From positions 118,219 through 138,218 of the forward strand of contig JBEWZL010000095.1 in NCBI GenBank assembly GCA_045837725.1: 20,000 nt of DNA. The letters run 5' to 3'. Position numbers and translations under genes: made by a program. Below, one piece after another: positions 560 to 19,870 of the stretch. How positions within the stretch are numbered: the stretch's first letter is position 1; every line of letters begins with the position of its first letter. The notes under the pieces are model-generated. The model saw only the letters and a program-made list of their open reading frames with translations, searched no databases and was not told where the DNA came from. The DNA is from Vermamoeba vermiformis (taxonomy: Eukaryota).

Positions 560-1634
560 TCATTCGATCGCATTCAACTGCAGTTCGTTCACACTGCGCG
601 AGAGTTGTTCTTCGAGGTCTAGCAGCTCTTGTTTAGCCTCTTCAATCTTCACTTGCGCTAAGGTCAGATCCTGCCCATCAAACTGTCAATAATGGCGCGA
701 CACACTAGTATAATACTCACAGGAGGCAGTTGATGGTAGCCTTTGAGCAGACCGAGCTTGGGCGCAGTTTCTTGTTTGATCCGCACGAGTTCAGTGTGCA
801 TCTGCTTGAGACTCTGATGATACAGCTCAGGTGTGACGCCAGTGCCCTTCAACTGCTCCTTCAGCTTGCCGAGGGTCTGTTCGTACTCCTGGCTCTTGCT
901 CTCGAGGTACTTCAAGTTCTTCAAGCGGTTTTGTACCGTGCTCAGCTGATTCGCTTGTGCCTCTTCGAGCTGCTGCAGCAATCTAACGCAATGCGTGAGT
1001 AGGGATGCTGTGCGACTAATATACTCACTTTTTGGCGTGCGTAAAGTCTTCCAGTGCGGTCTTGCTTTGTGTTTGCAAATAGTTCAGATGTTGCTCGAGG
1101 TCAGTTTTGAAGCGGATCTGCTCTGAATGTTCACTGCGCTGCTGGTATAGGCTCGATACGAGTACTGTAAGAGTGCAGTTGTGTGCTCCGAGCTAAATAC
1201 AACGTTAATTTGACTTATTAACAGCTAATTCATCCACGTACCAAGACAGTCAGATGTGCTAACAGTTCACTCAGCTCAAACACGCGCTGATAAGGTGATT
1301 GATATGTATTGGTATTGCCAGTGGCTATTTTATCGCGCTTCAGTCCCAATCCTTCGAGCAGCTTCTCTTTTCTATTCGCTGCAATAAATCATTAATTTTA
1401 ATTAGATCGCCTCTGTAACTCACCTTCATCTTGATATTCCTGGGCGAGCCTATTGTTGTTATTTATGATGATTTGTTGTTCGTGATTACGTCGCTTGTTC
1501 TTGAGTGCCAGTTCATACAAAGCAGATACAGTTTGATCGTTGATCTCAAATTCTGGCACTGCGCGGTCTTTGAACACCGTTTTCAACCAACTGGTAACTA
1601 CAGTTAGTTTGCTATCATATCCAATCTCTGACAT
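560..1634 (-). CDS. HAUS1: HAUS augmin-like complex subunit 1, 5 exons, about 294 aa
   Basis: Exons 1634-1424, 1378-1242, 1192-1029, 982-721 and 670-560, all GT-AG and in frame. The N-terminal VTSWLKTVFKDRAVPEFEINDQTVSALYEL and C-terminal YHQLPPDLTLAQVKIEEAKQEL match HAUS1 signature segments. Confidence 0.9.
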
Positions 1635-1808: not shown

Positions 1809-4800
1809 ATGTTGAAATTAGATGGGCTCTCAAGTCAAGACTCCGCAGTGCGTGTCGTGCTGCGGTTTCGACCAACTGAAAAATCAAGTTCAAATTTTTT
1901 AAAAATAGACAAAGACAAGCAAACAGTGCACATCAGCACCGAACTACCAGCTACGGTAAAAGTCAGTCGGGATCTGCCGATAATTTTCATTATTTTTTTA
2001 AAATCACTCAAAATTAATCGATCCCTACATAGCGATTCAATTACTTTAAAAACTAATATTATTTTATTTTAAGACTCACTCGCGACGTCATTCGATAAGC
2101 ACCACTACCAAAACTGATTTTCATCGTTTTGTATTTGACCGTGTATTCGCAGAGACCGCTACACAAGAAGAAGTACGCATCGCACATATACAATAAGACT
2201 AGGCAGGACACTAACAGTACTGTTGACAGGTGTACAATGAAACTGCCGCGCCCCTCGTGGATGGTGAGTGACACGCAAGACATTTCTTGAGACCAGCGAC
2301 TAATAGCAGGCCATTCATATAGACATCCTGCGCGGATTCAATGCGACTATATTCGCGTACGGCCAGACAGGGTCAGGCAAGACGTACACTATGCAAGGCC
2401 CCTCGATCGAGGACCCCGCGCACCAAGGTCTGTGTCCGCGCCTGATCACACATCTGTTTGATCGCATTGAAGAGATGAAGACCAACAAGGACGTCGAGCT
2501 CATATTGAAAGTGAACTGCATTGAGATCTATCAAGAGCGCATCAACGACCTCTTGGATCGCACGCGTGAAAATTTAAGGCTGCGTCACCACCAAACACGC
2601 GGCTTTTACGTGGAGAAGTGTTCGGAGATCTACGTGAACAGTGCGCGCGATGTGATTGAGCTGATGAAGCGTGGATTTGGCAACAGACGCACGGCCTCGA
2701 CGAACATGAATGCCGAGAGCAGTCGCAGTCACAGCATCTTCATCCTGCACCTGACGCAGCAGCACTTGAACAAAGAGATCAACAGTCGACTCATTTTGAT
2801 TGACTTGGCTGGCTCTGAAAAGGTAGGCAATTTTCTGTGCAGACTTATCTTTGCAATCATTTTTCGTTGGTGGCACGCTTGTTCACTGAACGACGTGTCA
2901 TCTGTATGTAACTCGTAGTATACACCGCTTAGAGGACGATACTGACGTGAGTTTTTTGCGATGGTTATATTTATTACTATAAACAGGTGAGCAAAACAGG
3001 CGCTGAAGGCCAAACACTGGAGGAGGCCAAGACGATCAACAAGTCGCTCCTCACCCTCGGCAACGTCATCAACGCGCTCACTGAAAAGAATGTACGTGCG
3101 AGTCACTGAATGACACCTGTCACTCGAATCACGTGATCTCATTGGTTGTTTGTCACAGACCTTTGTGCCCTACAGAGACAGTGCGCTGACCTTGCTGTTG
3201 AAAGAGTCGCTCGGTGGTAACTCCAAGACGACGCTGATCGTGAACTGTTCGATGGACGCGTACAATGCCAGCGAGACACTCAACACGATGCGATTCGGTC
3301 AGCGCGCCAAGCGTATTGAGAACAAGCCCAAGATCAACATGGAACAGACTGTCGGCGAACTCAAGCAGCAACTGGAAGCCGTGCAGCACGAGTACAGGTC
3401 TGTATTTGACACGTGTCACTCCCCGAGTGCATCGACTGACAGGTTGACAGTGCACTGCTGCTCCACAACAGAATTCTGTCGCTGCTGTCACTCACCAGGG
3501 CTGAGTTCACACCGCGCGAGCACGTGATTCACTGGCCAATCGAGGACTCGGCGGAGAGAACACGTGATCCACGCCCTAGTGCCACTGTCAGTCACGTGCT
3601 CGAGATGCCAATGCCGCCCTGGGCACCGGTCTCGTGGCCCGCGACACCACGTGGCCCTGTCACACCACGTAATGAGCCTGAGCCAGTGTCTATTATTCCG
3701 CCGGACTTGTCACGAGTTATTCCGCCACCACTTGTGATTGGTGCGCTATCAAAGAGCACGTTCGGTGAAGAGAGAGATGTCAAAGTGCGACCTCCGCAGA
3801 TCAGTGCTGCAAATCCGTTCAATCCACCAGGGCTCTCTGCTGCCATGTGGAACGATCACGTGACATTCGACGATACACCCAATGCCACGTGGCAGGATCT
3901 TCGAGAGCAGCCAGATCGAGAATTCAATTCTCCGACAGCAGTGCCAGCACAGATCACGTGTCAAGCACCGCCAATGATGCAGTTTGAGGAAGAAGTGACT
4001 GAACCCGAAGAGGATCTAAAAATAGTGCTAGAACGACGCAACAGTTCGCTAAAAAAGGAAATGGAATCTTTGCAACGAAACAAGTCGAAAGAGGCCGAAG
4101 AATTGCAGGCAAAATTGACAGAACAGCAAAGACTGGTCGAAGAGTTGCAAAAGCAATTACTCTCCGCACGGAGATCTCGTTCACTGATTGGCCACGTGAT
4201 CTACAACGCTTTGCTCGTGGTCTTGGTGGCACTTGTGTTCGCAGCTGGCGTGTATCTCGCGCCAAATATAGATCCTTCGCTCACCTCGTGCAGTGACACG
4301 TCACGTGTGTTTAGTTACGACATCTACTTTGACACATTGGGTCTGACACCTTCAGCCTCAAGTCACGTGGTCAAACAGCGGTATCGAGAGCTCTTGCTGC
4401 AACTGTAAGCTATTTTTAGCCCCCACGTGCTCTTCTAACATGTCTTGTTTAGACATCCGGACAAAAATCCGCACTGCGATGACGCGTGTCATAATCAACT
4501 TCACAACGTGAAATTTTCCTATGACGTGCTGTCACTCGCAAAGTTTCCCAAAGATAGCATTGATGACAAGGCTGTGGAATGTCAATGTGCCACCTGTCCT
4601 GAAGTCCAATGTCCGGAGGCTGTTAAGTGTCCCGAACCCGTCACGTGTCAATGTCCGACTCCCGCGGAGTGCCCCTCAACGACCTCTACGGAGTGTCACT
4701 GTCCACAACTCACATGTCCTGATCCTGTCACGTGTCAATGTCCGGAGTCTGTTAAGTGCCCTGAACCAGTCGCGTGTCAATGTCCGACTCCTACCGAGTG

Positions 4801-6046
4801 TCAATGTCCAGCCCCCGTGGATTGCGACAAGTCACGTGAAGAGTCCCTGGCAGAGCTAAATATAGTGCTGCGCGAGTCACTTGAAAGCTGTCAACGTCAA
4901 GTCAAGCACTGTCAAGAACAGCTCATTCATGAACAAAGTGTCGTACGTGACTTGGAGCTAAAAATAGAACAGTTCCAGCCCACCGTCGTGGTGGTGCAAG
5001 AATCTCGTCCGGAGATCGCAGTGCCCGACTGGAAAGAAGACAGTTCGCTGCAGTGGATGTTGGAAGAGGAGAAGAAGAAGCAGCTCGGACTGATCACCAC
5101 GCACTACCACTTCACGTACTGGCACACTGCCACCGAGCACTCGGACAGACTCGATCACCTCGCTGCTGGACTCAACGACGCACTGAAAGTGAACGCTGAG
5201 TTCCATTCACGAATGCGAGCGAGTGACGGAGAAGACGCGGAGATGACTGCCAAATATGGCATTAACGCTGACCAGCCGTACGTGGTGGCTGAGACAACCA
5301 TAACGATCGTGTCACGTGACGATGAACAGCAGCAACAAATGAAGACTGTCATGACTTTCCCTGGGCCGTTCTCCGACCAAACATTCCAGCAATTATTGCA
5401 CAATTTCCTTAATTGGCAAGCATCGGAACATATCCTGCTCGGAGATTTCGATACATTGCCATGTTTGTCCACAGGAGCACGTGCTCAGCAGTACTGCGTG
5501 ATCATGATGGCAGACACTATGTCGCGCAGCAGTTTTGATCTGGGCTCGCGCATCTTGAAGTACTTGGAACTCACTTCGCAATTCACTGAACGAAGTGTCA
5601 ATCTGCCACCCGACGTCGAGTTTGCATTCCGTCTCATTGACACAGGCCGCAAAGAGAGTCTCTACGACCACATGTCCCGCGATCTCGAGCTCGTGTCCAA
5701 TGCACACATGCAGCTGCATCACCAGCTGATTGTAGTCTCGCTGCACACGGCACAGTTCTGGCAGTACGATCGACCACTCACCTTCCAGCGTGCCACCGAC
5801 TACCCGGCACTGCGCACGTGGTTCAACAAGATTGTGCGCGCGATTGAGCGGGGACAAGACGAGGACAGTGCTGACAAATCGGAGCGAGTGCCCGCAGAGC
5901 CCGCGAAGGTAGATCTGGCGCTGATCGAGTACACACGCCGTCGTCACTCGCCTGTGAGCACAGTGGTCTCGTACGGTGTGACGATAGGCCTCGCAGTCAA
6001 CTTCTTGTTGCGCCTCACTCGCCGTGCCCTGCAATTGCTGGGCTAA
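1809..6046 (+). CDS. Kinesin-1-like motor fused to TM helix, DnaJ domain, Cys-Pro repeats, DNAJC16-like region and C-terminal hydrophobic segment; 8 exons, about 1225 aa
   Basis: Exons 1809-1961, 2074-2172, 2230-2263, 2323-2822, 2987-3091, 3159-3397, 3451-4404 and 4453-6046 total 3678 nt in frame. Motor motifs: [18 protein letters not shown] (P-loop), NAESSRSH (switch I), [15 protein letters not shown] (switch II), [21 protein letters not shown] helix [26 protein letters not shown] at about 4184-4262. J-domain YFDTLGL...[13 protein letters not shown]...YDVLS. Confidence 0.8.
4574..4825 (+). repeat. Cys/Pro-rich coding repeats (CQCP, VKCPEPVxCQCPTP) containing a ~65-nt duplication at 4607 and 4736
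   Basis: caatgtccggag(g/t)ctgttaagtg...gtgtcaatgtccgactcc occurs twice, 129 nt apart. The translation has about 20 Cys in about 85 aa. Confidence 0.85.
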
Positions 6047-6145
6047 GCTCACTTGTAATTAGCTTTGTAAATAGTTTCGAATGGGTTTAATAAATACGCG
6101 TTGAACTCAATCAACAACAAAATTGAACAATAAATACAAGGCAGT

Positions 6146-9137
6146 CTACTTGGAGGATGAGGATGAAGAGGAAGATGACGAGGAGCTCTCTTCGTCCTTG
6201 GTGTGCGTGCTCTGTGCGTGGCCATTGCTCTCCGCGTGCACTTCAGTCTTGAGCTCGGTGGTGACGGGCACAGCTGGCTGGACTGCACTCTTGTCCTCTT
6301 TGTCGCTCTTCTTGTCCTCAGTCTGGGCCTGTGCGTGGTGCTTGTGTTCAGCGACACTCTCGGCCTTGACGTCACTCGTCACAGCCTCGCTGCTCTGTTT
6401 GACCTCGCTGCTCTGTTTGACCTCGCTGCTCTGTTTTATCTCGCTCTTCACTTCAGCACTCACGGGGACTGCAGGACTGGCACTCTTCTTGTCTTTCTTG
6501 TCCTTCTTGTCTTTCTTCTTCACCTCGCGCACGGACTCGCGCTTCTCTTTCTTCTCGGCAGCGTCCACTTTGACTTCAGCTTTCTTCTCTTCCTTGCTCT
6601 CTTTGTCTTTCTTCTTCACCTCGCGCACCGACTCGCGCTTGTCTTTGCGCGGTGAGGCCACGCTGTCGTCTTTCTTCTCCTCGCTCTTCTTGTCCTTCTT
6701 CTTCACTTCACGCACGGACTCGCGCTTCTCTTTGCGCGGTGACTTGCTCTCTTTGTCCTTCACTTCCAAGGTCGCGTCTTGTTTCACAGCGGCCTCCGTC
6801 TTGGCCTCGGTGCTCTTTGTCTCCTTCTTGCTCTTGCTCTTGGGACTCTTGGCACTCTTCTTGTCTTGCTCCTCGTCGCTCTTGTTCAGCTTGTCAGTCT
6901 TGCCTGCAGGACGCGGACTCAGCACTTTGGGCTCCTTCTTGCTCGTGCTGGTGCTGGGCACTGCAGCCACAGACATGGCACGTGCGCGCGTGCTGTTGTC
7001 CTCCTCCGACCACTCCTCCGAGCTGATCGAGTCGCGCTCGTTGGCTGGACGCGTGGGATCGTGCACCAACTTGCGCAACATGAAGTAGCGGAATCGCTTG
7101 GCGTAGTAGTCAGCGCGCACCGTGGAGAGTGTGGCCTCGTCCCAGACTATCTTCTTGAGCAGATTGGCGACCTTCTTCTTGAGCACGTAGGAGGTGAGGC
7201 AGTCGATGATGCCGATGAAGTAGATCTCTTGCTTCTGATCGCTCGGATTCGTGCCCACAAAGCCACCGAGCTCAAACACGTCTTGCACTGGCGCTGCGGT
7301 CTCTTTTTTGGGCTCGTCGTGCGCGGTGTTGTCCGTCTTCGCGTCCTCTTGCTTGCTGGCATCTTTCTTGCTGGCATCTTTCTTGGCCTCGTTGTCGCTC
7401 TTCTTCTCGTCACTCTGCTTGTCCTCTGGCTTCTTGTCCTCAGTCTGAGCAGCATCCTTCTTGTCGTCTGCTTTCTTGTCGTCGTCTTTCTTGTCGCTCG
7501 CGGAGCTCGAGGACGAAGAGGACGAAGAGGAGCTGGATGAACTGCGTGACTTGGTGACAGCTGTCTCGCTCTTGACTTGATTGGTGTTGTTGGGCTGTTC
7601 TGCGCTCGATGTGCTCGAGTGGTGCGTGGCTTCAGGGGACTGCTTGGACGCGTCCTTGGTGCTGTTGTCCTTATGATTGCTGTCCTTATGATTGCCGTCC
7701 TTAGTGTCGTGCACTTGGCGCTCCTGATCCGTGACGTAGTGCACACCGACCAGCAGCGAGTAGTCCATCACGTTGTGCTTCATCAAGAACTGCGCGGCAC
7801 CGTCAGTATTGCACTCCTATATATGCGCCCTAGTGTGTACTTACATCAATGTCTTGATTGAGCTGTTCGTAATAGAACTGCGTCACTTCTGGGGCACTGA
7901 AGTAGATCTGGCGCTGAATCTGGTTGTCTTTCACTGGTCCGCCACCCACTACTGGCGTGTTAGAGCGCTTGGGCTTGCGGCCTTTGAGATCATAGGTCTC
8001 GTCGATAGCTACGCCTGGTGGAAACACGTTCTTGAACACGAGCACCCAGATCTGCTTGGCAGGCGAGTACGTCAAGCGATAGAGGCCCACTACGCGCATG
8101 ATGAAGTTCTTAGGTGCGTCAGTGAGGTACTGGTGATAGTCCTTGAGCATGTCCATCATCACTCCGACTTCAGGGTGCAGCAACGTCTTGAAGAAGTAGT
8201 GCCGATCTTGCGTGCGATAGAACATGGAGCCACTGCGACCTGAAGACTGACTCAACTTCTGATCGGGTGCTGGATCTGCCCACGAAGCCTGTCACACACT
8301 CGTCAGTATATCGTAGCAACGCTATTATGGCAATTTCAATAAACTGCGAGACATGCAACGGTTGACAGATCGTACCAAATAATCGGGGGTTGTAATGCCG
8401 CAGAGACGACGGACATCGCGGAACACATGAGGTGCATAGTCTTTGAGTTGCAAAGCACCCTTTACTCTGTCAAAGAGGTGAGCTAAGAGCGGATGGATCT
8501 GGACAAAAAACATTGCAGTAATTCTAACTTACCCCTGAAACTCTTCGCTGACAGTGTGCGCAAAGTCCTCGCTCTTGACCTCTTTGACTTCATCGTACTT
8601 TTGGGCCTGCAATAATAATAAGCTGAATTAATACCGTTATTTTAATATTGAGCGGGTAGGCATTTGTATAATTAGCCGAGCAGTTGCAATTAATTTACTA
8701 GTAAATATACTCTATATTAATAGCCACAATAAATAACATGACATTAATTAATTAATGGCGCTCTGATCCTTACCGAGTGACGAATGCACAATATAATATC
8801 GCGAATAATTGACATCTTTGAGCGGCGCGTGAATGAAGGCACACACCTATATGAACAATACTAAATAACGAGCACTAATGTCACTGATTAAATATCACTC
8901 GTGGTGCTGTGCAGAACGAGCAGTCAATAACAACGGAGAATTATGTCACGCTGCTTGTACGCGAGGGGCGGCTAGCTGGCACAAAGCTGCGAATTCATGT
9001 TGCTGCAGTGTACTGAGAGTGTAGTGCACTTACTTGTGGCAGTACCATAGCTTTTTTTCTTTTTCATACGGATCAATCCGCTGATCTCGGCGAATCCGCT
9101 TCGCCACAGGGTCCTTGATGACGGTGGTCTTAATCAT
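6146..9137 (-). CDS. Phosphatidylinositol-phosphate kinase (PIP5K/PIP4K family) with a large low-complexity insert and a charged C-terminal tail
   Basis: Motifs: KDYAPHVFRDVRR, SSGRSGSMFYRTQDRHYFFKT, YDLKG, MDYSLLVGVH, YFIGIIDCLT...YAKRF. GT-AG introns join the pieces in frame. The putative first exon 9137-9034 joins in phase 2 to the exon starting at 8846; an alternative ATG lies at 8815. Stop TAG at 6148-6146. Confidence 0.88.
6380..6740 (-). repeat. Coding repeats in the PIP kinase tail: 3x KRESVREVKKKDK and 3x tandem 21-nt (EVKQSSE-like) units
   Basis: On the + strand, ttcttcttcac(c/t)tc(g/a)cgcac(g/c)gactcgcgctt occurs three times (about 6514, 6609, 6696), and ctcgctgctctgttt occurs three times at 21-nt spacing (about 6386-6445). 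Confidence 0.85.
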
Positions 9138-9302
9138 TGGCTATTAACTAGAATTGGACATTATTTCAAAACGACTCGGCATGATGTCTTTTCAAATTAA
9201 GCGATTTTCAAGTGAAATGCCGCGTGTAATTATGACGATCTGCCTCAAGTGAGCACCTCAAAGCTGCACATATTAATCGAAGTGAACATACAGTATTAAA
9301 AT
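9138..9302. promoter_or_regulatory. Probable bidirectional promoter (PIP kinase / YAE1)
   Basis: Divergent ATGs are 165 bp apart; this depends on the 9137 start being correct. Confidence 0.45.
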
Positions 9303-9849
9303 ATGGATGACGATTGGCTCGTAGATGAACAGGCATTAACTTCAGACAACTATCAGCAGTATGTCAGCGATCGAGAATGGAACTCGCTTAAAAATGAATT
9401 TACAAAGGTAATTAAATACAGGACTAACTATCAGGACTAACTGTTTCGTATTATATTCGATACTTCTCGTATAAATTATCTCACTATCAGATCTGACCCT
9501 CTTCCAGGCAGGCTACAGAGAGGGTGTGAAAGAGGGTGCAGATCGTGCGCGCCAAGCAGGGTTTGAAGTCGGATTCGCGCACGGGGGACCCTTGCTGCTG
9601 CACACGGGCTATCAGATTGGCCTGCTCGACACCCTCAAGACATTCTACGCGCGCAGTGACGCACCAGCACTCAGCGAACAGCAGCGCAGTGCCCTCGACG
9701 CACTAGTGGCAGAGCTCGCAGCCCTCGATGATGCGTCCTTGCTCGCTGAAGCAGATGGCGCGAGAACTCAACGTGCGGAGAGAATACAACGCCTCGCTGA
9801 TGAGCTGCAGCTAGGTAGCATTCCGAATGTGAACAGTACGAGCATATAA
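9303..9849 (+). CDS. YAE1: Yae1-family protein (Yae1/Lto1 Fe-S cluster adaptor for ABCE1), 2 exons
   Basis: Exons 9303-9407 and 9508-9849. Product MDDDW...REWNSLKNEFTKAGYREGVKEGADRARQAGFEVGFAHG carries the repeated GxxxG (Yae1_N) motif. Confidence 0.8.
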
Positions 9850-9960
9850 ATAGTATTGCTATTGTCTTCGTGGTCAATAGCGCTGTAAATAAACAAATTA
9901 CAATTCATTCATTTCGCGTGACTTGGACACTACTGCTCGTGACACTAACACCGCTGTTCT

Positions 9961-10685
9961 ATGACTTATAGCACTATCAAGCATCTGCAGAATCGCACTG
10001 GCAAATACAGTGCTGGACGTTTCGATTACTTGCAGCAATTAGTCACCGAGTTCACTGACACGGCAGATCTCGGTAAGTTTCAGCTGTAAAATTAATAGCA
10101 ACGTATTAATAGCATACTAGATGATAAAGTACAGATATTGGCGCACTTGGCGAATTTTGCGTACGATCCAATCAACTACGACCACCTGCTCAAGCTGAAT
10201 GTGCCCGAGCTGTTTCTCGACTGCTTGGAGGAAGACAATGCGCAGCTGATTGAATTCGCTGCGGCTGGACTCTGCAATATGGTGCTCGGTACGTCAGCTG
10301 CGCGTGTTGCCCTTCTCAAACAGCCACTAACCACCAGCCCCCCTCAGAGCCGCGTGTGTTGCAGTGCGTGGTGGAGAGTGACGGCGTGCGACAGTTGATT
10401 GCACTGCTCGCGAGTGAGGTGCTGAACACGGTGTTGAGTGCACTGCTCGCACTCTATTACATCGTCACTGCTCAGCCTGAACTCAAGCCTGGTACGTAGT
10501 GCTGACTTAGATACATCGATCACTATCATACGCCTACTGTCCTATCTTCACTGTATACTCACACTATATACACAGCAATTGCCACGCGCGCAGTGATGCA
10601 AGCGCTGCACAAGTACGCACAGGCCAGTCACACCGCACTGCGCAACACCGCTGCGATAGTGCTGCAGACACTCAGCGAGCAGTGA
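9961..10685 (+). CDS. ARMC7: Armadillo repeat-containing protein 7, 4 exons, 177 aa
   Basis: Exons 9961-10072, 10121-10288, 10348-10491 and 10576-10685. Signature RTGK...[12 protein letters not shown]...[19 protein letters not shown]...LFLDCL...EFAAAGLCN. Confidence 0.92.
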
Positions 10686-11069
10686 GCAGTGCAGAGTGAC
10701 AATAGGCTTATCATCATATACTTATCATATACTGCTGATGATGATGCTGGACCACGTGACGGAGAGTTGTTCCGGATCAAGCTGTTGACGGTACTTGTCT
10801 CGCGCGTCACAGCTCACACGACCACGATGTTAGGTGCCACGCACTAGTGTGGGTATATATGCACATGTACGTAGCATGCTGACGAAAATAAATTTGGGTG
10901 GTCAAGACTGATCCGATCAGAAACAAATTCAGTTCAACACTGAAGAGCACGAAGCAACCTATTTGTATATAACTAATAATAGAGGTTACTTTATATTACT
11001 TAGAGCTAGGCCTGTATCTCCCTTGCTTTAATGTCTGTCTATTGCTTGTTGACTGCGATCCAAAACTAG

Positions 11070-14000
11070 ATGCCATTAAAATCAGCGTTATTTAACTGGA
11101 CCCGGTGGTGCCAAGTATTTATATTACTAGCACTATCGCAGGTCAGTTTGTCAGCTCAATCTCGAGCGACCTGTGAAGGTATGTTTTATTTATTATTATT
11201 AAAATTCCATAATTACTAGATTCTGTCTGCAAGGATAATTTTTCAATTAATGCAAGCATGATAACTAATATTGATAATTAATATGCACCTAGACGGTACG
11301 ACGAGACAGTTCTTTGATCATTTTGTTAATGTCGCCGATCTATCGCCACAACCACAAACAGGCAATTACCGCGTTATTCCCAACTACTTTGTGCATCAGG
11401 TGGGTGCTATAACGTTATCTTACAATAATATACGCATATATACTGCATAATATGACTTTGACGGCTGTGTTACAAGCGAGTACACAGCAGTGAGGTCACA
11501 TCTGCCTCTCATTCGTTGTACACGATGCTAATGCTCGCCTATGCAGACCCATTCACACCCCGAAGTGAAGCGAGCTGATCCCCAGCCTATAGTGTAAGTA
11601 CTGTGCCCTCACGCTGCACGCAGTTCTGATCCACATCCAGGCCCGACAAACACGCCGCGAGTGTCGCTAATCCACACTCTACGCCTCAAGTGCAACTGTT
11701 GCCATATCACCTCTCATTCAACGAGCGGTACGTGACTAATGAGCCACTCTAAGCAGCATATTGACGCATGTGATTTCAGTCCCATCTGCTTGGCCTCGAT
11801 CGAATACATTGAAGTGCTCAATCTCTCTGACAAGGATGAGCTGCATATATTCTCTGTCGCCTCTGAGAGCGCGCACTTCCACGCTTCCTTCAAACACACC
11901 GTGCTGCCCCCGCGCGCGAATCTGTCGATCCCGGTGGTGTTCTTGGCGAAGGTGCTGGGCCCAGCAGAGACGAGTCTCGTGATACAGACCAATCTCGGCG
12001 GCTTCATCTACCAAGTGAGTGGTGTCGGCGTGCCCAATCAGTACGCAGTGGAGCCGCTGGTGGGTGTGAAGGTGTTGGTGCAGCACTGGTACAGCGCACC
12101 GATCACGCTCTACAACCCGACCAGCGACACCCTCGTCGTCAAGGAGGTGTTCACCAGCGGCGGGTTCTTGCACCTCTCACTGCCGGGCAGCGCTGGGCAC
12201 ACCCGTGGACAACAGACGGCTGTGGGAACTGACGCCCTATCAGCGCAAGCAGATCATCAATCTCGACTTTCAAGCGGCCAATGCGGGCAAGTATCAGGGC
12301 TTCATCTACATCAAGACTGATCGCGACATGCTCATCGTGCACGTCGAGGTCACGGTGGTGAAGAGTGCGCTGCAACTCACCGTGGACGAGCTGGACTTTG
12401 GCACACTGACCGCACTGCAGCACCGGCACAGTGCCACCGACCTCACCGCACCACTCACGCGCAGTGTCACACTCACGCTGCTCAACGGTCACGCGCATGC
12501 TGTGCACGTGCACGAACTCACCCTCTCAGCACTGCAGAATGATCCGAATATAGCTGCAAAGATCGATCTAAAAATAGACTTTCACGGCCCCATGGACCTG
12601 GCACCCCTCACATCACGTGACATTGGCACAGTAACATTTGCAGCCAAGGTCGATGGTGTCTACCGCGGAAAATTAGCTGTCAAAACCAATGACACGGCTC
12701 AAGCGCGCATCGAATTGCCTTTTAAGGCGCGTGTTATTGGTGGTCACGTGATCCCCGAGCTCGCGAGCACGACCTTCCCGATCAGCGTCAAAGGTCCCCC
12801 GTTCAGTGCTGTCGTGCAACCGATTCAACTGACCAACAAACTCGCCACGCCATTCACCGTGCTGACTGCAGAGCTCAACGATCCATTGTTCCGCATCACA
12901 CACTTGACACCTGTCAGTTCCGTGCCTGTCAACAGCACGTGGAGTGGTGTCACGGTGAGTTTCACGGCCAATTCCACGCAGAGTCACCGCAGCGAACTGA
13001 TACTGCGCACGAACATCACCACGCTGCACGTGCCCCTCACCTCGTACAGCGGTCGATTGCACTGCGCGGTCACTGGGGCTGCACTGCCGCGCCTCGTGAG
13101 CTTTGGCGTGGTGAGTGTCGGCGAGAGTGCGCACAAGACCCTCACGCTGCACAATCCCAATCCCGTGGCCATCGCCGTGCTGCAAATCAACTCGGATCTT
13201 GCGGGCCTCGCGGTGACACTCGATCACGTGACTGACACGCACGGTGACACGCAGCACCTGTCACGTGTGCTGAGCAGTGGACCGCGTGCCAAGGGTGAGT
13301 TGAAAGAGCCGCTGTTCAGCATTGAGAGCAACAGCACTGCGCAGCTGAGTGTGGCACTGTCCCCGCACCAAGAAGAGCTGCGCGAGGGCCGCATGCACAT
13401 CCGCACCTCACACGAGACACTGCGCCTCAATGTCAGCTATCACGCCCTGCACGGCAGTCTGCGCATTGAGCCGCACAGTCTCACATTCGATGAGCCTGCC
13501 TTCCCCGGCCTGCGCCTGCACCACTCGATCATGGCCCACAACTCATTCGCCCGCGCCATCAACATCTCGCACATGCACGCCAATGATCCGCGCTTCATAC
13601 CCGTGGTCGAGAAGCGAGTGGTGCAGCCCAATGTGATGACCAAAATAGGCTATTTGACCTTCGATCCCGCCCTCGCCCCGCACCACTACATGCTGCACAC
13701 GAGCACTGCCACGAGTGACGCACTGACCAGTGAAGAGCTCGAGGCCCGTCAGAGCTTGGACGCGATGTGGCAGCACGTACTCGACGAGCACAGCGAACAG
13801 ATCACCGCGCAGCTCACCGTGCACACTGACGTTGCAGTCACCCCCGTGCTCGCTGTGCACGCCTCACTCACACGCCCGTCCATTCTGCACAGCACCACAC
13901 TCGACTACGGACTCACGCAGCTGCACACACAGCGCACGCAGTACATTGTGCTGCACAACCCCAGCGATCAGCCAGTGCACGTGCAGCTCTTGCCACTCAC

Positions 14001-16743
14001 GGGCGCAGTGTCCTGGTGGCGCAGAGTGCAGGCGTGGCTGTGGCAGCAAGAGGCCGAGTTCTACTACCCCGCTGAGTGCACCACCACCGCACTGCTCGCA
14101 CCGCACCGACAAGTCAAGCTCGGTCCACTCATCTACGTGCCCCATCACCTCGGTGTCGACGAGATCACCGTCACTGTGCGCAACAATCTCACCGTGTACG
14201 AACAGATCAAAGTGATTGGCCAGGGTGGTTCAGGACACCTCACCCTGCACCAGGGTCACGGACACAGCGCTGCTGTCACACCTGCCACTGCTGTCGTGCT
14301 GCACTTGGACACCAAACAACTTGCACGCTGCGCGCGTGGTAGCACGAGTGGCATCAATGTCACGCACTCGTTCCAGCTCGTCAATGATGGCACATTGCCA
14401 CTCAAAGTTGATGCACTGGGAATCGATGCGGACACGTGCGAGACGGAAGACTTCAAGCTGCACAACTGCAAGCCCTTCTCACTGTCCCCCACACAGACAC
14501 ACAACCTCACCGTGACATTCACACCCGACTTCAGTGCTGCCACTGTGCGCCGCGACTTGGTGCTGTTCACCGATCACGGCACGTACTCCTTCCCACTCGT
14601 CGCGCACATGCCACCAGCAGAGGTGCAGCTCTGTGCTGAAGTGCAGGCCCCGCACTCCGCGCAAGTAGCACACACAGCGCGCACCCTGTTCATCGCCTTC
14701 TGCTTCTGCATGTTTGTCTTCTTCGTGGTGATCATCGTGCAGGAGTACCGCTATCAGCCACAGGGACCGCGCTACTCGGACAAGAGCGTGCCTGAAGACA
14801 TTGAACAGGACACCAAGCGACCCACCCCCGTGACAACCCCCACCGCGCCAGCACACCTCGCGCACCCCACACCCACTCCTACCACACCGAAATCTCCCTC
14901 GAAGCATACTCGTGACAGACGCGAGACACTCCCCGAACCTGCCCTGACACTGCCGTCGATGACGCTGGAGAGCAGTCACGTGACACCAGCGAGCACACCC
15001 CTGACCACCACGAGCGCGAGTCCGAAGAAAGCAGCAGTCACGCTCAACACGAGTGCTGCGAACACGAACACTGCGAGCACAGCGAACAAGAGCAGAGGGC
15101 GCTCCAACTCCAAGGGTCAGCGCGGCAAGATTGATCCGCAAGCACCCTTCACCATCACCACTGCCGTGCCCGTCACACCCACCACTGAACACAAGCCCAA
15201 GCCTGCCAAGACACGTGCTCACACTGCCCCCGACACCGCTGCGAGTGCTGATGTGACACCTGTCACTCACACGTCACACCTCACCACGCTCATCACACCT
15301 GTCACTGCTGCTGTCACCTCGAGTGTCACTTCACACTCCACTGTCGCGAACACCACTTTGACACCTGTCACTCACACGTCACACCTCACTACCCTCACCA
15401 CACCTGTCACTGCCCCTGTCACTTCGCACACCCCTGAAGTGCCAGTGCCGCACAACACCACCTTGACAGCTGTCACGCCCCTCACGCCAGCCCCCACTGT
15501 CACACCTGTCACCACGACATTGACCGCGCTCGCCACTGACAAGCCAGCCGCACGTCCAGCTACCGAAGATCGACCACCGCGCACCAAGAACGTCAAGCCC
15601 CCCAGCAACAATGTGCCGCCCTATCATCGCGGTCCTAAGCGCAGTCCCAAGAGCTGGGTGCGCAAAGACGAGAAGCAGAACGCTGAAGCCAAGCAAAGTG
15701 CCACCGAGTCCCCCGTGCCAGCAGTGGATGCAGTCAAGAGCGAGGAGCACACCGACACTGCCGATCGATCCAACAACTCCACCACCATTGCCAAAAAAGA
15801 GTACGTCAAGACCTTGTACAAGCCAGCACCGCGCGTGACAGGTGTCAAGACCCCGTCACCGAGTCACTCGCCCGACACGAGCAGCACACGCAGCGAGGGC
15901 AAAGCAGTGCGCAAGAGTCCGCTGCCCGTGAGTCCCATTCTCACCACCACACCGCTCAGTGCCCCGAGTCTGGAGAGTGCAGCGAGTGAGTTCAGCTACC
16001 TTGAGCACTACTACCCCGAGATTGAGGGCACGGAACTCGTCTACAACAGCATTGCCGCACTCACGGGCACGAGTGCCACCAACACCGCCGCGACCTTCAA
16101 CACCAATCTCGCTGCACCGGCACCCAGCTCACCGCACAACCGCAGCACGGTGCGCGATCCGTTCTCGTTCGGTGCCCTCGATCAGCGCATTCACACCGCG
16201 CAGTCACGTGCGCACCCACCCCCGCACGGCACGATTGGTTCAGTGAAGCCACGTGCTTTCGATCCCTGGGACAGACCCATTCTGTTCGATCTCGATGGTG
16301 ACAGCAGTCAGCACGTGGTCTCGCATTCCCCGCCCACCACGCAGTACACGTCACCGCACAGTCCTCCGAGTGACACGTGGACTGACACGCAGCACACCTC
16401 ACCCTCGCTGTTCACTGCACTGCCCCCGCTCTTTGCAGCCCCCTCGCAGCACTCCTTCTTCTCGTCCCCCACCTTCCCGCGCGTGAGCAAGTCGAGTGAT
16501 GACGTCATCACGCCACCCAGACCAGATCCAGCTGTCAATCCACTCTCCACCTCCGTCTCCTCGCTCACCGCCTACAACCCCTTCAACGGTGGCTCGTTGT
16601 TCGCGATGAGTGAGTCGCCCTTCACGCCCTTCGCGCCCTATCCGCACACCTCGTCCTTCGGCTCCTTCAACTTGCAGAACTTGTCGCAGCTGCGCAATGG
16701 GGACAGCACGCACGAGCCCCACCCTGCTGCGGATGATGCGTAG
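11070..16743 (+). CDS. TMEM131: TMEM131-like type I membrane protein (signal peptide, PapD/Ig-like luminal domains, TM helix, Thr/Pro/Ser-rich tail), with an apparent +1 frameshift near 12186-12204
   Basis: Signal-peptide exon 11070-11178, three small exons, then coding sequence from about 11780. HFHASF...VVFLAKVLG...GGFIYQVSGVGVPNQY...YNPTSDTLVVKEVFTSGGFLHLSLP...LWELTPY and RNNLT match TMEM131. TM helix LFIAFCFCMFVFFVVIIV at about 14686-14739. Confidence 0.85.
15254..15425 (+). repeat. Direct repeat of about 55 nt (period 105 nt) in the TMEM131 tail, encoding TPVTHTSHLTTLxTPVTA
   Basis: tgacacctgtcactcacacgtcacacctcac...cacacctgtcactgc starts at 15254 and again at 15359. Confidence 0.85.
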
Positions 16744-16935
16744 TGCTGTACATAGCAGTTGTTGCAGTGCACGTCATTGATCGCCAATAAACAGTGCAAT
16801 CTGTCCGCACCTGACGCGCGCTCGATCTGAACTCACCGAACAGTACTCGAGTGCGCGCCTTTTTAAGGCAAACAAAATTGTGTCTTTGCATTTGTATGTT
16901 ATTTTAAATAGGACCACCACCGTACTAATACAGCG

Positions 16936-19870
16936 ATGAGCAACGTGCAACCAGTGTTAGGCAAAGCGTCAGTGCGGATAGTGGTGGTGGGAGATCGTAC
17001 GTGTTAACTGTGCTATTATGAGCCTTTATTTGTATTAATACTATTACAATTTAGCGAAAGTAGGCAAGACGTCATTAATTACCTCCTTAGTTTCGGATGT
17101 GTTTCAAGAAAAGGCAAGTTCCCATCTGGCTGGCAAATACCCTCGTTCAATTATAATTATTTTAATTATTTTTGCATTTGATTAAATAGAATAATATTAA
17201 TATGACAAACGCATTTCGCGTATTGCGTACTTTACAATAATTATTAAATTGCCAGCTTGGATCCGCAATTTACTGCGCACTATATTTATCGTGCACGGAC
17301 CTTGTTCATACCCGTAGCATTTATATAATTGTTCAACGCACCTATTGTGCAGATCTGACCCCTCTCCATCATTAGGTAGCTCCAAAAGTCTCGCCGGTGA
17401 TCATTACCCCTGCCTCCACTCCTGAACACGTCGAAGTGCAGATTATTGACACATCGTGTAGGTCTATATGAGTGATATTCGCTTCTATGACGCATTTAAC
17501 GCATTGCATTGCAGCACGCGAGGCAGATCAGAGCGAAGTTGACGAGGAGATCCAGCGCGCCGATGTCATGTGCATCGTGTACGCAGTGAATGACGCAGCG
17601 AGCAAGGCCAGCATTCGCGACAACTGGCTGCCTCGTGTGCGACGCTTGGGCGTGTCAGTGCCGATCATACTGGTGGGCAACAAGGTGGATCTGGCCCTCA
17701 CTGAACGCTCTGTCAACGATCTCAAGCGCGAGCACGAGCCCATCATGAACGAGTACCGAGTAAGTGGCGTGTGACGTGGCAATCACGTGACTGATGTGCG
17801 GTGCAGGAAGTCGAGACGTGCATCGAATGTTCCGCCAAGACCTCGATGAATGTCGACGAGGTGTTCTTCTTCGCACAGAAAGCGGTGCTCTATCCCACAG
17901 CGGTGCTCTACGATCTCGCGGAAGAGGTAGGACTCGTGCACGTGTGCTGCCACAGACCACTGACCGCACCTGCAGCAATTCAAGCCCAAGTGCATTCAGG
18001 CCTTCAAGCGCATCTTCAAGCTGTGCGACATGGACAAGGACGGCGTGCTCGACGATCACGAGGTGAACGAGTTTCAGGTACGTCGCGCGCACTGTCCGCA
18101 CCACTGATGATGATTGACACGTGTCACGCACACAGCGCAAGTGCTTCGAGGGATCGTTGACAGCGAGTGAATTGGACAAGTTGAAGGCCTCGGTGAAGAA
18201 GCACAATCCGATTGGTGTCAGCGAGCACGGCCTCACCATGGAGGGCTTCTTGTTCTTGCAGCACTTCTTCATTCAAAAGTACGCGCTGCTCTGACACCTG
18301 TTATGCGTGTCAACTCACTGTTTGTTGTAGGGGACGATTGGAGACTATTTGGACTATTCTACGCAAATTTGGCTACAACGACAAGCTGGATCTGGACGAA
18401 TCTTTTGTGTGCCCTGAGTGAGTCATCAGTCTCATACTGAGTACTTATATATAATACATATGCATGCTCACAATCTTGTCCATGCAGAATTGAAGTGCGA
18501 GAGAGCGAGGGAGAGAGAGCGGAAATTTCCTCGCAGGGCTACGGCTTCTTGACCGATTTGTTCCGCCGTCACGATCTCGACCAAGACGGCGTGTTGAATG
18601 CGAGTGAATTGAGCGAACTGTTTTCCGTCTGTCCCGAGCACACGCACCCGTGGGAACAGTTTCAATTCCCGCACTGCACTGCCACTGACAAGCACGGAAA
18701 TCTCACGCTGCAGGGATTCTTGGGCATGTGGAGGTAACTGTTTGACACGTGTCACCTGTCACGCTAACATGTGACAGCATGCTCTGTTTGTACGATTATC
18801 GCACAGCAATGCGGTACTTGAATTATTTGGGCTTTGAACCGAAAGAGAGTCGCAGCGAGTGTTTGGTCGTCACGCAGTAAGTGGATGCAGACCTCTGTTT
18901 GACACCTGTCATAATGTCTAATGCCAACTTGCGCAGAATTAACAATCCTGAACGCGCTCGCACAGTGTTCCACGCGCTAGTGTTTGGAGCTAAAAATAGT
19001 GGCAAGGTATGCGAAGAGAGTGTTGTAGTGATTGCACTTATTAACAGCTAAAAATAGAGCTCAATTCTGCGCGGATTTCTCAACAAACCATTTGTGGCTG
19101 AACACGCCGAGCCACTGTCCTATGCTGTCAACAGTGTGGAGAATCAGCGCGTGTTAGTGGTGCGTCTAAATATAGTATTGAACGCCGCGTTCATTCGCTG
19201 ACACGTTTGACAGCTGCACGAGGTGACAGGTGCGGACGAGACACGTGTGCTCGAGACCCTCGAAGACATTGCACGCTGCGATCTGTTCCTGTTCGTGTAC
19301 GATCAGAGCGATGCCAGCGCATTCAATCACGTGCTCGAGCTCTACAACACGCACATTCACGCGCAACAACTGCTCAGCGAGGATGGCACGCGTCAGATTT
19401 CACTCAGTCACGTGCCTGCATTGCTCGTGCAGTGCAAGAGCGACCTGCCCAAGGCCGCGCAGGTGTGTGGTGCTAAAATTAGCCGTTGAACAACATTCAT
19501 CGCTAACTGTACTTGTAGGTGTCGAAGATGAGTCCCGAGGCATTTGCACGCACATTCAAGCTCAACACAGTGGCTGTGTCCCCTGCACGCAACGAATTCA
19601 ACGACCTGTTCAATCAAGCTGTCAATCTCGTGTTGCGGTAAGTGACATCTGGTCATCGGGGAACATTGTAATAATGCTGACTGTGATTGAAGTGCCAATC
19701 GAACTCAGAAGCCACGCTCAACCAGTAGCAGGTGGAGTGCGCCATACTTCTTGTTGTACGGCCTCACCGTGGGTCTGATTGTGGGTGGAGGTGTAGTTTT
19801 GACACGTGTCTTGCAACATAAGCACGTCAACCTGTCACACTTCAAGCTACCTTCGTGGCAACGAAAATAG
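16936..19870 (+). CDS. RHOT: Mitochondrial Rho GTPase (Miro/Gem1): GTPase - 2 EF-hands - GTPase - C-terminal TM; about 15 exons
   Basis: [59 protein letters not shown]-hands [12 protein letters not shown] and [27 protein letters not shown], second P-loop GAKNSGKSS, and tail anchor [18 protein letters not shown]. Stop TAG at 19868-19870. Intron 2 is GC-AG. Confidence 0.95.

Follow-up and report, generated by a model that had tools for sequence, protein, structure and literature searches.

A neutral process of the repair or conversion type was once proposed for HIP1 (GCGATCGC), a cyanobacterial word that is, in its behaviour, the closest analogue of the element described here. As presented in two studies, HIP1 is a short perfect palindrome, one to two orders of magnitude more frequent than expected, which occurs in and outside coding DNA and whose sites are conserved between genomes, a conservation read as selection rather than repair bias, its function being unknown (PMC5861425, PMC4390886). 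Here, we analyse a dyad, TGACA-SS-TGTCA (TGACASSTGTCA, S being C or G), that recurs in a stretch of 20,000 nucleotides assigned to Vermamoeba vermiformis (contig JBEWZL010000095.1, positions 118,219 to 138,218 of the forward strand); this whole stretch is called the window, and positions are counted from its first letter. MEIS and PKNOX proteins share the palindromic type of TALE-homeodomain site, dimers of bHLH or bZIP proteins specify the two central bases of the E-box, and introner elements are shared sequences that recur in many short introns of unrelated genes. For TGIF1, the structural report describes two homeodomains bound to opposite sides of the crystal site ATTGACAGCTGTCAAT (PMC6158717). 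Our literature searches, including those with the words TGACACGTGTCA and GACACGTGTC, found no such eukaryotic signature within the searches made, and those combining highly iterated palindromes with eukaryotes gave matches that were all cyanobacterial by title.

A dyad of fixed spacing in gene bodies

The dyad is confirmed as a genuine feature, non-random and conserved, with more structure than the first-pass annotation of the window had recognised. The ten exact copies listed there, all S-S centred, are indeed present; the mean in 200 dinucleotide-preserving shuffles is 0.01 and none of these shuffles reached 10. When up to one mismatch is accepted, 20 copies are found for 0.50 expected, the largest shuffle value being 3. 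The spacing is fixed, TGACA being followed by TGTCA ten times at a distance of 2 and zero to two times at each other distance from 0 to 30, and neither everted nor direct arrangements of the half-sites have a spacing peak in the window. The centres of the exact copies are CC or GG (six), CG (three) and GC (one), and all ten copies contain CASSTG. The count of ten does not translate into ten independent events, since the copies at 15254, 15359 and 15464 open the successive units of a single 105-bp tandem repeat, which leaves eight independent sites. The flanks of these eight are informative only at positions -1 (T in 6/8) and +1 (C in 6/8), so that the unit is the 14-mer TTGACAC-S-TGTCAC (TTGACACSTGTCAC in its counting form), which is probably functional. 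A longer shared element around the copies was considered and rejected, as similarity ends at the 14-mer.

The first-pass annotation would have given up the motif if a Markov model of order 4 to 5 explained its frequency, and such models do not, predicting between 0.07 and 0.74 copies for the 10 observed. Trained on the window, they yield 0.12 at order 4 and 0.44 at order 5; trained on the motif-rich compartment, 0.14 and 0.74, or 0.07 and 0.23 once the sites are masked. The excess over these expectations is thus 14- to 140-fold, as measured in 20 kb only, and the dyad exceeds the prediction from its own sub-words more than tenfold.

The dyad belongs to a wider family of words. CACGTG, which had been called abundant, is the commonest hexamer of the window with 44 copies, the other CANNTG centres having 1-18 each; GTCACGTGAC, contrary to what had been noted, is scarce, with 2 copies only. 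At more than 800 bp from the start codon, observed/expected ratios are highest for the hexamers CACGTG (11.6), GTGACA/TGTCAC (7.9), CTGTCA (7.2) and GTGTCA (7.0), all of them sub-words of the dyad and its relatives. CACGTG lies in all three reading frames and is often found with symmetric flanks, as in TCACGTGA (9 copies), ACACGTGT (5) and GCACGTGC (5); six of its 44 copies are part of a perfect 12-bp palindrome, four different flanks being represented among them, for about 0.7 expected under independent uniform flanks. Palindromic 10-mers as a class number 45, against 21-31 in Markov simulations. Sense-strand half-sites are nearly equal in number (55 TGACA, 64 TGTCA).

The eukaryotic DNA of the window is densely packed with genes whose introns are short and have GT..AG borders. 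Pfam scans of open reading frames and hand-built models give seven genes, and the dyad occurs in three of them, namely a kinesin gene (introns 5 and 6), a Miro gene (introns 6, 9 and 10) and a TMEM131-like gene, which holds all five exonic copies. Codon usage does not account for the words in these genes. In 300 synonymous-codon shuffles made within each gene, with protein and codon usage fixed, none reached the observed counts, which are, for CACGTG, 16 in kinesin (3.9 expected) and 15 in TMEM131 (5.4 expected); for TGACA or TGTCA, 29 in kinesin (18.3), 41 in TMEM131 (15.6) and 12 in Miro (4.7); and for the 12-mer, 5 in TMEM131 (0.05), the codon-shuffled background having been among the checks proposed by the first-pass annotation. 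The conserved N-terminal parts (the kinesin motor, the TMEM131 N-terminus and the 5' half of a PIP5K gene) leave hardly any room for the words and are nearly free of them, and the words are plentiful in protein tails; the pressure is therefore visible where the protein is free to vary. In the first 600 bp of the Miro coding sequence, TGACA or TGTCA occurs 4 times for 1.2 expected.

The copies depend on position within genes. Pooled over the first 800 bp from the ATG of the seven genes (5,270 bases), there is no CACGTG and no dyad with up to one mismatch, against 43 and 20, respectively, in the remaining 12.7 kb beyond 800 bp. The word family is almost lacking in intergenic DNA, of which the 1.85 kb in the window contain no dyad copy, and is dense downstream in introns and exons. 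Within the window, the copies are consequently not spread evenly in the manner of HIP1, to which their dispersal had been likened, and PIP5K is not enriched. As the GC content is already 0.51 in the 400-800 bin, and 0.52-0.56 in the bins from 800 to 3,200 bp, GC alone is no explanation for the jump at 800 bp. Among the 20 introns within 800 bp of the ATG, 19 have a GC content of 0.25-0.46 (the exception has 0.59) and none contains a dyad or CACGTG; beyond that distance, 5 of 17 introns carry an exact dyad (hypergeometric P 0.014 against the 0/20) and several more carry CACGTG. Given that only four genes extend past 800 bp, we take this positional break as a lead, not as a law. Composition changes along the genes too: within about 800 bp of the start codon the DNA, introns included, is mostly AT-rich and ATTAAT is its most prominent word, whereas most of the introns further on are GC-richer, and TA becomes strongly depleted past 800 bp (observed/expected 0.39 vs 0.87). 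The same 5'-to-3' shift is seen in the Miro gene of a related species (positions 2346-4186 of the contig introduced below).

This related species is represented by L001, a contig of 4,193 bp obtained in a metagenome scan that returned one locus, and syntenic with the TMEM131 tail and Miro exons 1-9. Between the two species, 374 of 380 residues of the Miro protein are identical, as are 1024 of 1168 columns of exon DNA, 98 of 161 four-fold sites (0.61) and 441 of 815 intron columns (54%). The enrichment extends to this second species: L001 has three TGACANNTGTCA in 4.2 kb (centres CC, CA and CA), for 0.01 in shuffles. Its TMEM131 tail has CACGTG 5 times for 1.35 expected and TGACA or TGTCA 13 times for 5.0 expected, Miro exons 1-9 of L001 have no excess (2 vs 2.07), and its introns shift from AT-rich at the 5' end to GC-richer and motif-bearing, as in the window. 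The three intronic dyads covered by L001 have counterparts in the same place, with 11/12, 10/12 and 10/12 bases identical. The orthologue in Miro intron 6 is TGACACATGTCA (11/12) and that in intron 9 is TTACACCTGTCA (10/12); in intron 7, L001 has an intact TGACACATGTCA and the window copy is degraded. Pooled, 31 of 36 bases of intronic dyads are identical, against a neutral level of 0.61 (binomial P ~0.001), and intronic TGACA/TGTCA 5-mers are kept in 6 of 9 cases, compared with 81 of 688 other intronic 5-mers (Fisher P 0.0002). The exonic copies match their L001 counterparts at 12/12, 10/12, 10/12 and 9/12 bases.

Possible explanations of the dyad

The explanation that we favour, if tentatively, is that the dyad, TALE-like in geometry and with an E-box at its core, may be a double-stranded DNA site maintained by selection and read in gene bodies by a dimeric protein. 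Recognition as double-stranded DNA by a dimer is suggested by the fixed spacing, the equal half-sites, the symmetric flanks of related words and the near-equal sense counts of TGACA and TGTCA, and selection is favoured because the dyads have been retained in introns that are otherwise diverged. A sequence-specific protein, perhaps a TALE homeodomain, bHLH or bZIP factor, would bind two inverted TGACA half-sites 2 bp apart, with an E-box-like CASSTG core between them, and binding would exert its effect in gene bodies; alternatively, two monomers might occupy opposite faces, in the manner of TGIF1 on its site. The dyad is the strongest member of a family that includes CACGTG, TGTCAC, CTGTCA and GTGTCA. 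Purifying selection would retain the intronic copies, and those in loosely constrained coding DNA would be tolerated and turn over.

Several observations weigh against this explanation. The non-palindromic versions are TGACAC-first on the sense strand at 5/5 intronic loci and in 8 of 9 copies of the window and L001 taken together, and a purely double-stranded site would need neither this sense orientation bias nor the T...C flanks. At about one perfect site per 1.6 kb of gene body, with CACGTG at 2-6 per kb, the words are far denser than regulatory sites ordinarily are. In exons, half-sites are conserved no more often than other words (7/25 vs 520/2205 in TMEM131, 2/7 vs 629/1142 in Miro), and intronic CACGTG is kept in 0 of 4 cases in L001, because its central CG changes. 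In PIP5K, synonymous shuffles reveal no enrichment (4 vs 3.4; 1 vs 0.06). The comparison itself also imposes caution: the loci of the conservation test were picked after being seen, the alignment could favour the matching of shared words, and L001 is orthologous to part of the window rather than an independent locus, the whole study resting on 24 kb.

The sense orientation and the asymmetric flanks would fit an element of the pre-mRNA, UUGACAC-S-UGUCAC, bound by an RNA-binding protein or acting through copies that pair with each other, an explanation that nonetheless seems unlikely to us. Since any two copies are self-complementary, their pairing could affect the splicing of short introns or loop out the exons between them. 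The confinement of the copies to transcribed DNA, their conservation in introns and not in exons, the contrast between introns beyond and within 800 bp, and the grouping of intronic copies within genes (kinesin introns 5 and 6; Miro introns 6, 7, 9 and 10) all fit such an element. Against it, a single-stranded site for a protein needs neither perfect dyad symmetry nor a fixed spacing, the distance of the dyad from the 5' splice site varies from 9 to 37 nt, and the exonic copy at 15836 is antisense. Nor do the motif-bearing introns show excess folding (z = +1.47, -0.21, +1.42, -1.19 and -1.46), the z-scores of 20 short introns being scattered around zero. No Rfam family matches the window, and no skipping or back-splice joint was found among the 15 joints listed out of 39.

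Neutral drive, by which sequence-biased mutation, mismatch repair or gene conversion would regenerate functionless words in gene bodies, is doubtful as well. It would agree with a family enriched in all three frames that seems to shape weakly constrained residues (HV, TR, VT, CQ) and leaves conserved domains free, with the turnover of exonic copies between the two species, with the general surplus of short palindromes and with a 5'-to-3' shift in composition common to introns, exons and both species. However, the intronic dyads have stayed in place while the introns around them fell to 54% identity, the least constrained DNA (intergenic regions and 5' introns) is devoid of the words, and the dyad surpasses what its sub-words predict. 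A signature of the very-short-patch repair type was rejected, for it predicts depletion of the one-step neighbours of CACGTG, and CACATG (7) and CATGTG (5) are at ordinary levels.

In a bolder reading, which we consider distinctly unlikely, selection would maintain the palindrome family (TTGACAC-S-TGTCAC and the CACGTG words) as the eukaryotic equivalent of HIP1. The family would mark transcription units, starting some 0.8 kb downstream of the start codon, and be read by a dedicated dimeric factor. Such a factor would define the chromatin of gene bodies, or a co-transcriptional state, in a very compact genome, and the pressure it imposes would bend synonymous codon choice and even the amino-acid content of weakly constrained protein regions.

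It is highly improbable that the copies are what remains of mobile elements or introners that had the palindrome as their terminal or internal sequence. The motif does occur in many short introns, five copies share some upstream similarity over 26 nt (73-100% identity, family D4), and three of these five have AGGT 8-10 nt upstream, two of them true 5' splice sites; but the eight independent sites share no information beyond the 14-mer, neither terminal inverted repeats nor target-site duplications were found, the introns are unrelated in the rest of their sequence, some copies sit in frame within coding DNA whose frame is conserved, and, as L001 shares the motif-bearing introns, these are not recent insertions. 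Finally, a by-product of base composition, codon usage and a T/P/V-rich TMEM131-like tandem repeat, with no real feature behind it, is barely credible, for even though duplication of one repeat unit accounts for three of the ten copies and all five exonic ones lie in one T/P/V-rich protein and one frame, eight independent copies remain, five of them intronic, and these are reproduced neither by dinucleotide shuffles nor by synonymous shuffles nor by Markov models up to order 5.

Should the pattern extend to the whole genome, it would amount to a sequence code in gene bodies, kept in introns that are otherwise scrambled and overriding synonymous codon choice. It would also offer a tractable case for weighing selection against drive in the maintenance of palindromes, a question unsettled for HIP1, and a practical marker for contigs of this lineage in mixed samples.

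Sites, genes and transcripts of the window

The kinesin gene (1809-6046, plus strand, 7 introns, complete open model) has an exact 12-mer, TGACACCTGTCA, in intron 5 (3111..3122, plus strand; intron 3092-3158) and the 14-mer TTGACACGTGTCAC in intron 6 (3406..3419, no strand assigned; intron 3398-3450). The Miro gene (16936-19870, plus strand, 14 introns, complete open model) carries the same 14-mer in intron 6 (18114..18127, no strand assigned; intron 18078-18135) and again in intron 9 (intron 18734-18777), where it starts at 18742 and is overlapped by a one-mismatch copy, TGTCACCTGTCA (18742..18761, plus strand). The first-pass annotation had placed all three 14-mers in short introns, which spliced contigs confirm for the two Miro introns and the gene model supports for that of kinesin. 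Miro intron 10 (18877-18936) has a further exact 12-mer (18900..18911, plus strand). The TMEM131-like gene (11283-16743, plus strand, Pfam scan and hand-built model) has one at 12905..12916 (plus strand), in the frame TTG ACA CCT GTC (L T P V), and a 105-bp coding tandem repeat at 15254..15476 (plus strand; 2.1 copies, 80% matches), each unit of which opens with the 12-mer, the copies at 15254, 15359 and 15464 encoding VTPVT, LTPVT and LTAVT. Its last copy, TGACAGGTGTCA (15836..15847, minus strand), is the sole one with the TGACAC half antisense.

That the dyad lies both in introns, those of two unrelated genes, and in coding DNA, that of the TMEM131-like gene, is thereby confirmed, the coding copies reading L/V-T-P/A/G-V in a single frame. 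With the near-copy in the last Miro exon included, the shared frame is xTG ACA SST GTC, or L/V-T-P/A/G/R-V; one of the remaining two frames of the dyad would open with a TGA stop. Three of the four near-matches noted earlier likewise stand, with one mismatch each: TGACAGCTGTCT in an exon of the minus-strand PIP5K gene (7555..7566, no strand assigned), a copy in Miro intron 7 (18292..18303, plus strand; intron 18279-18330) and TGACACGTGTCT in the last Miro exon (19800..19811, plus strand; L T R V, in the frame of the TMEM131 copies). The fourth (2224) differs at two bases and spans the border between an intron and an exon, being a 3' splice site of the TGACAG type joined to the following exon. 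Many introns end in TTGACAG or GTGACAG, with a branch-point-like CTRAC 10-20 nt upstream (672-720, 2173-2229, 3398-3450, 8467-8533, 18734-18777 and 19160-19213), and part of the intronic TGACA excess is due to these splice signals. The dyad as a recursive splice site, in which a 3' splice site TTGACAG would be joined to a 5' splice site GTGTCA, was rejected because most sense-strand copies read CAC, not CAG.

On a larger scale, the words are concentrated in three gene bodies, none of which has a strand assigned as a feature: that of kinesin more than 1.2 kb from the ATG (3100..6046, dense in family words, 19 CACGTG), that of the TMEM131-like gene (12500..16743, with the 15 CACGTG and 41 TGACA/TGTCA given above) and that of Miro beyond about 0.8 kb (17760..19870), where GC-richer introns bear CACGTG or the dyad. 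Other words recur as well. GCTAAAAATAG has 6 copies with 81-100% identity (4010, 4952, 12562, 18984, 19042 and 19467; family D7), and an exact 16-mer, TTGGAGCTAAAAATAG, is found in different frames in exons of kinesin (4952) and Miro (18984); the exonic copies of GCTAAAAATAG resemble intron 3' ends, since Miro intron 11 does end in a copy of this word (19042-19057). Among 5-mers, CACTG/CAGTG is the most frequent (128 over the two strands), and GCACTGC and CACTGCGC recur in 5' and 3' parts of genes as a separate over-represented family (D12).

The remaining genes are HAUS1 (~560-1633, minus strand; a hand-built model with approximate borders and 11 internal stops), PIP5K (6146-9134, minus strand, 5' border approximate), a Yae1-domain gene (~9300-9850, plus strand, borders approximate) and a small gene without Pfam match (ARM; ~9960-10690, plus strand, borders approximate); these approximate borders affect class lengths only. 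According to the Pfam scans, none of the seven genes is a transcription factor. Spliced contigs of runs X4, X5 and X8 support two PIP5K introns and 13 of 14 Miro introns, the joint of the Miro intron 17760-17806 being present only in X5, with one extra letter; the kinesin and TMEM131-like introns are known from gene models only, that of kinesin having an open frame and GT..AG borders. Miro intron 2 (17114-17375) is AT-rich, 262 nt long and best read as GC..AG after a 2-nt shift of the joint, and its L001 orthologue of 252 nt begins with GT. The TMEM131-like frame shifts near 12189, the open reading frames 11736-12320 and 12070-16743 differing in frame. Contigs of X5 and X8 have two additional letters (GC) behind 12189 (window 12185-12215) that would join them into one, which points to a 2-bp deletion or an assembly error in the window.

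The kinesin tail (3451-6046) is unusual and comprises a hydrophobic stretch, a J-domain-like HPDKNP segment, a Cys-rich repeat of a 10-residue unit and its variants (4607-4825; repeat families D5, D6 and D10) and a part of 500 residues without Pfam match, whose relatives, at 62-81% identity, are metagenome proteins only; scans of genome contigs and viral contigs with the tail found no relative. The best named kinesin matches are distant (Acytostelium, 53% identity; Aphanomyces, 42%). PIP5K has a long low-complexity insert rich in Lys, Asp, Glu and Ser (6146-7600), made of degenerate repeats (families D1, D2, D8 and D11), and RNA contigs of other strains diverge or break around 6485-6520 within it. 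Near-identical DNA or RNA contigs of the locus occur in runs (X1-X24) under six coded organism labels and several metagenome labels, and the raw RNA of X23, which has the same species label as X5, hardly touches the locus, only 4 partial reads among 12.9 million having matched it. In at least some of these runs the window therefore probably comes from an accompanying or contaminating organism rather than from the species on the label; X23 itself is uninformative for this locus.

Comparison with described systems

Like introner elements, the motif of the window recurs in short introns of unrelated genes; it differs from them in that the similarity ends at 14 nt, without terminal repeats or duplications, and in that copies are also exonic. 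The E-box and G-box (CANNTG and CACGTG) are closer, given that every copy contains CASSTG and that the CG centre dominates (44 vs 1-18). Nevertheless, CACGTG is found here in gene bodies, at 2-6 per kb, with 0 copies within 800 bp of seven start codons and 43 beyond (promoters being unmapped), the TGA...TCA extension is not a standard bHLH flank, and in introns the CACGTG cores are conserved in 0/4 cases, against 6/9 for the TGACA/TGTCA halves.

The resemblance to a TALE dimer site proposed by the first-pass annotation is borne out in geometry, which equals that of the TGIF1 site; the palindromic TGIF1/TALE site TGACAGCTGTCA also has two inverted TGACA cores separated by 2 bp, the left one preceded by T. 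The resemblance fails at the sixth base, the core being followed by G in 8 of 20 half-sites and by C in the other 12, so that TGACAG does not describe them. The window centres are moreover CC/GG (6), CG (3) and, once, GC, the right flank is C rather than A, and the density and gene-body location are unlike those of known TALE targets.

HIP1 thus remains the closest analogue, in behaviour rather than in sequence. The dyad of the window is likewise one to two orders of magnitude above a high-order background, it occurs in exons and introns, and its intronic sites are conserved beyond the neutral level. It differs in being a 12-14-mer with a degenerate S-S centre, in belonging to a eukaryote whose genes have spliceosomal introns, and in keeping, within the window, to gene bodies past about 0.8 kb, to the exclusion of the 1.85 kb of intergenic DNA and without enrichment in PIP5K.

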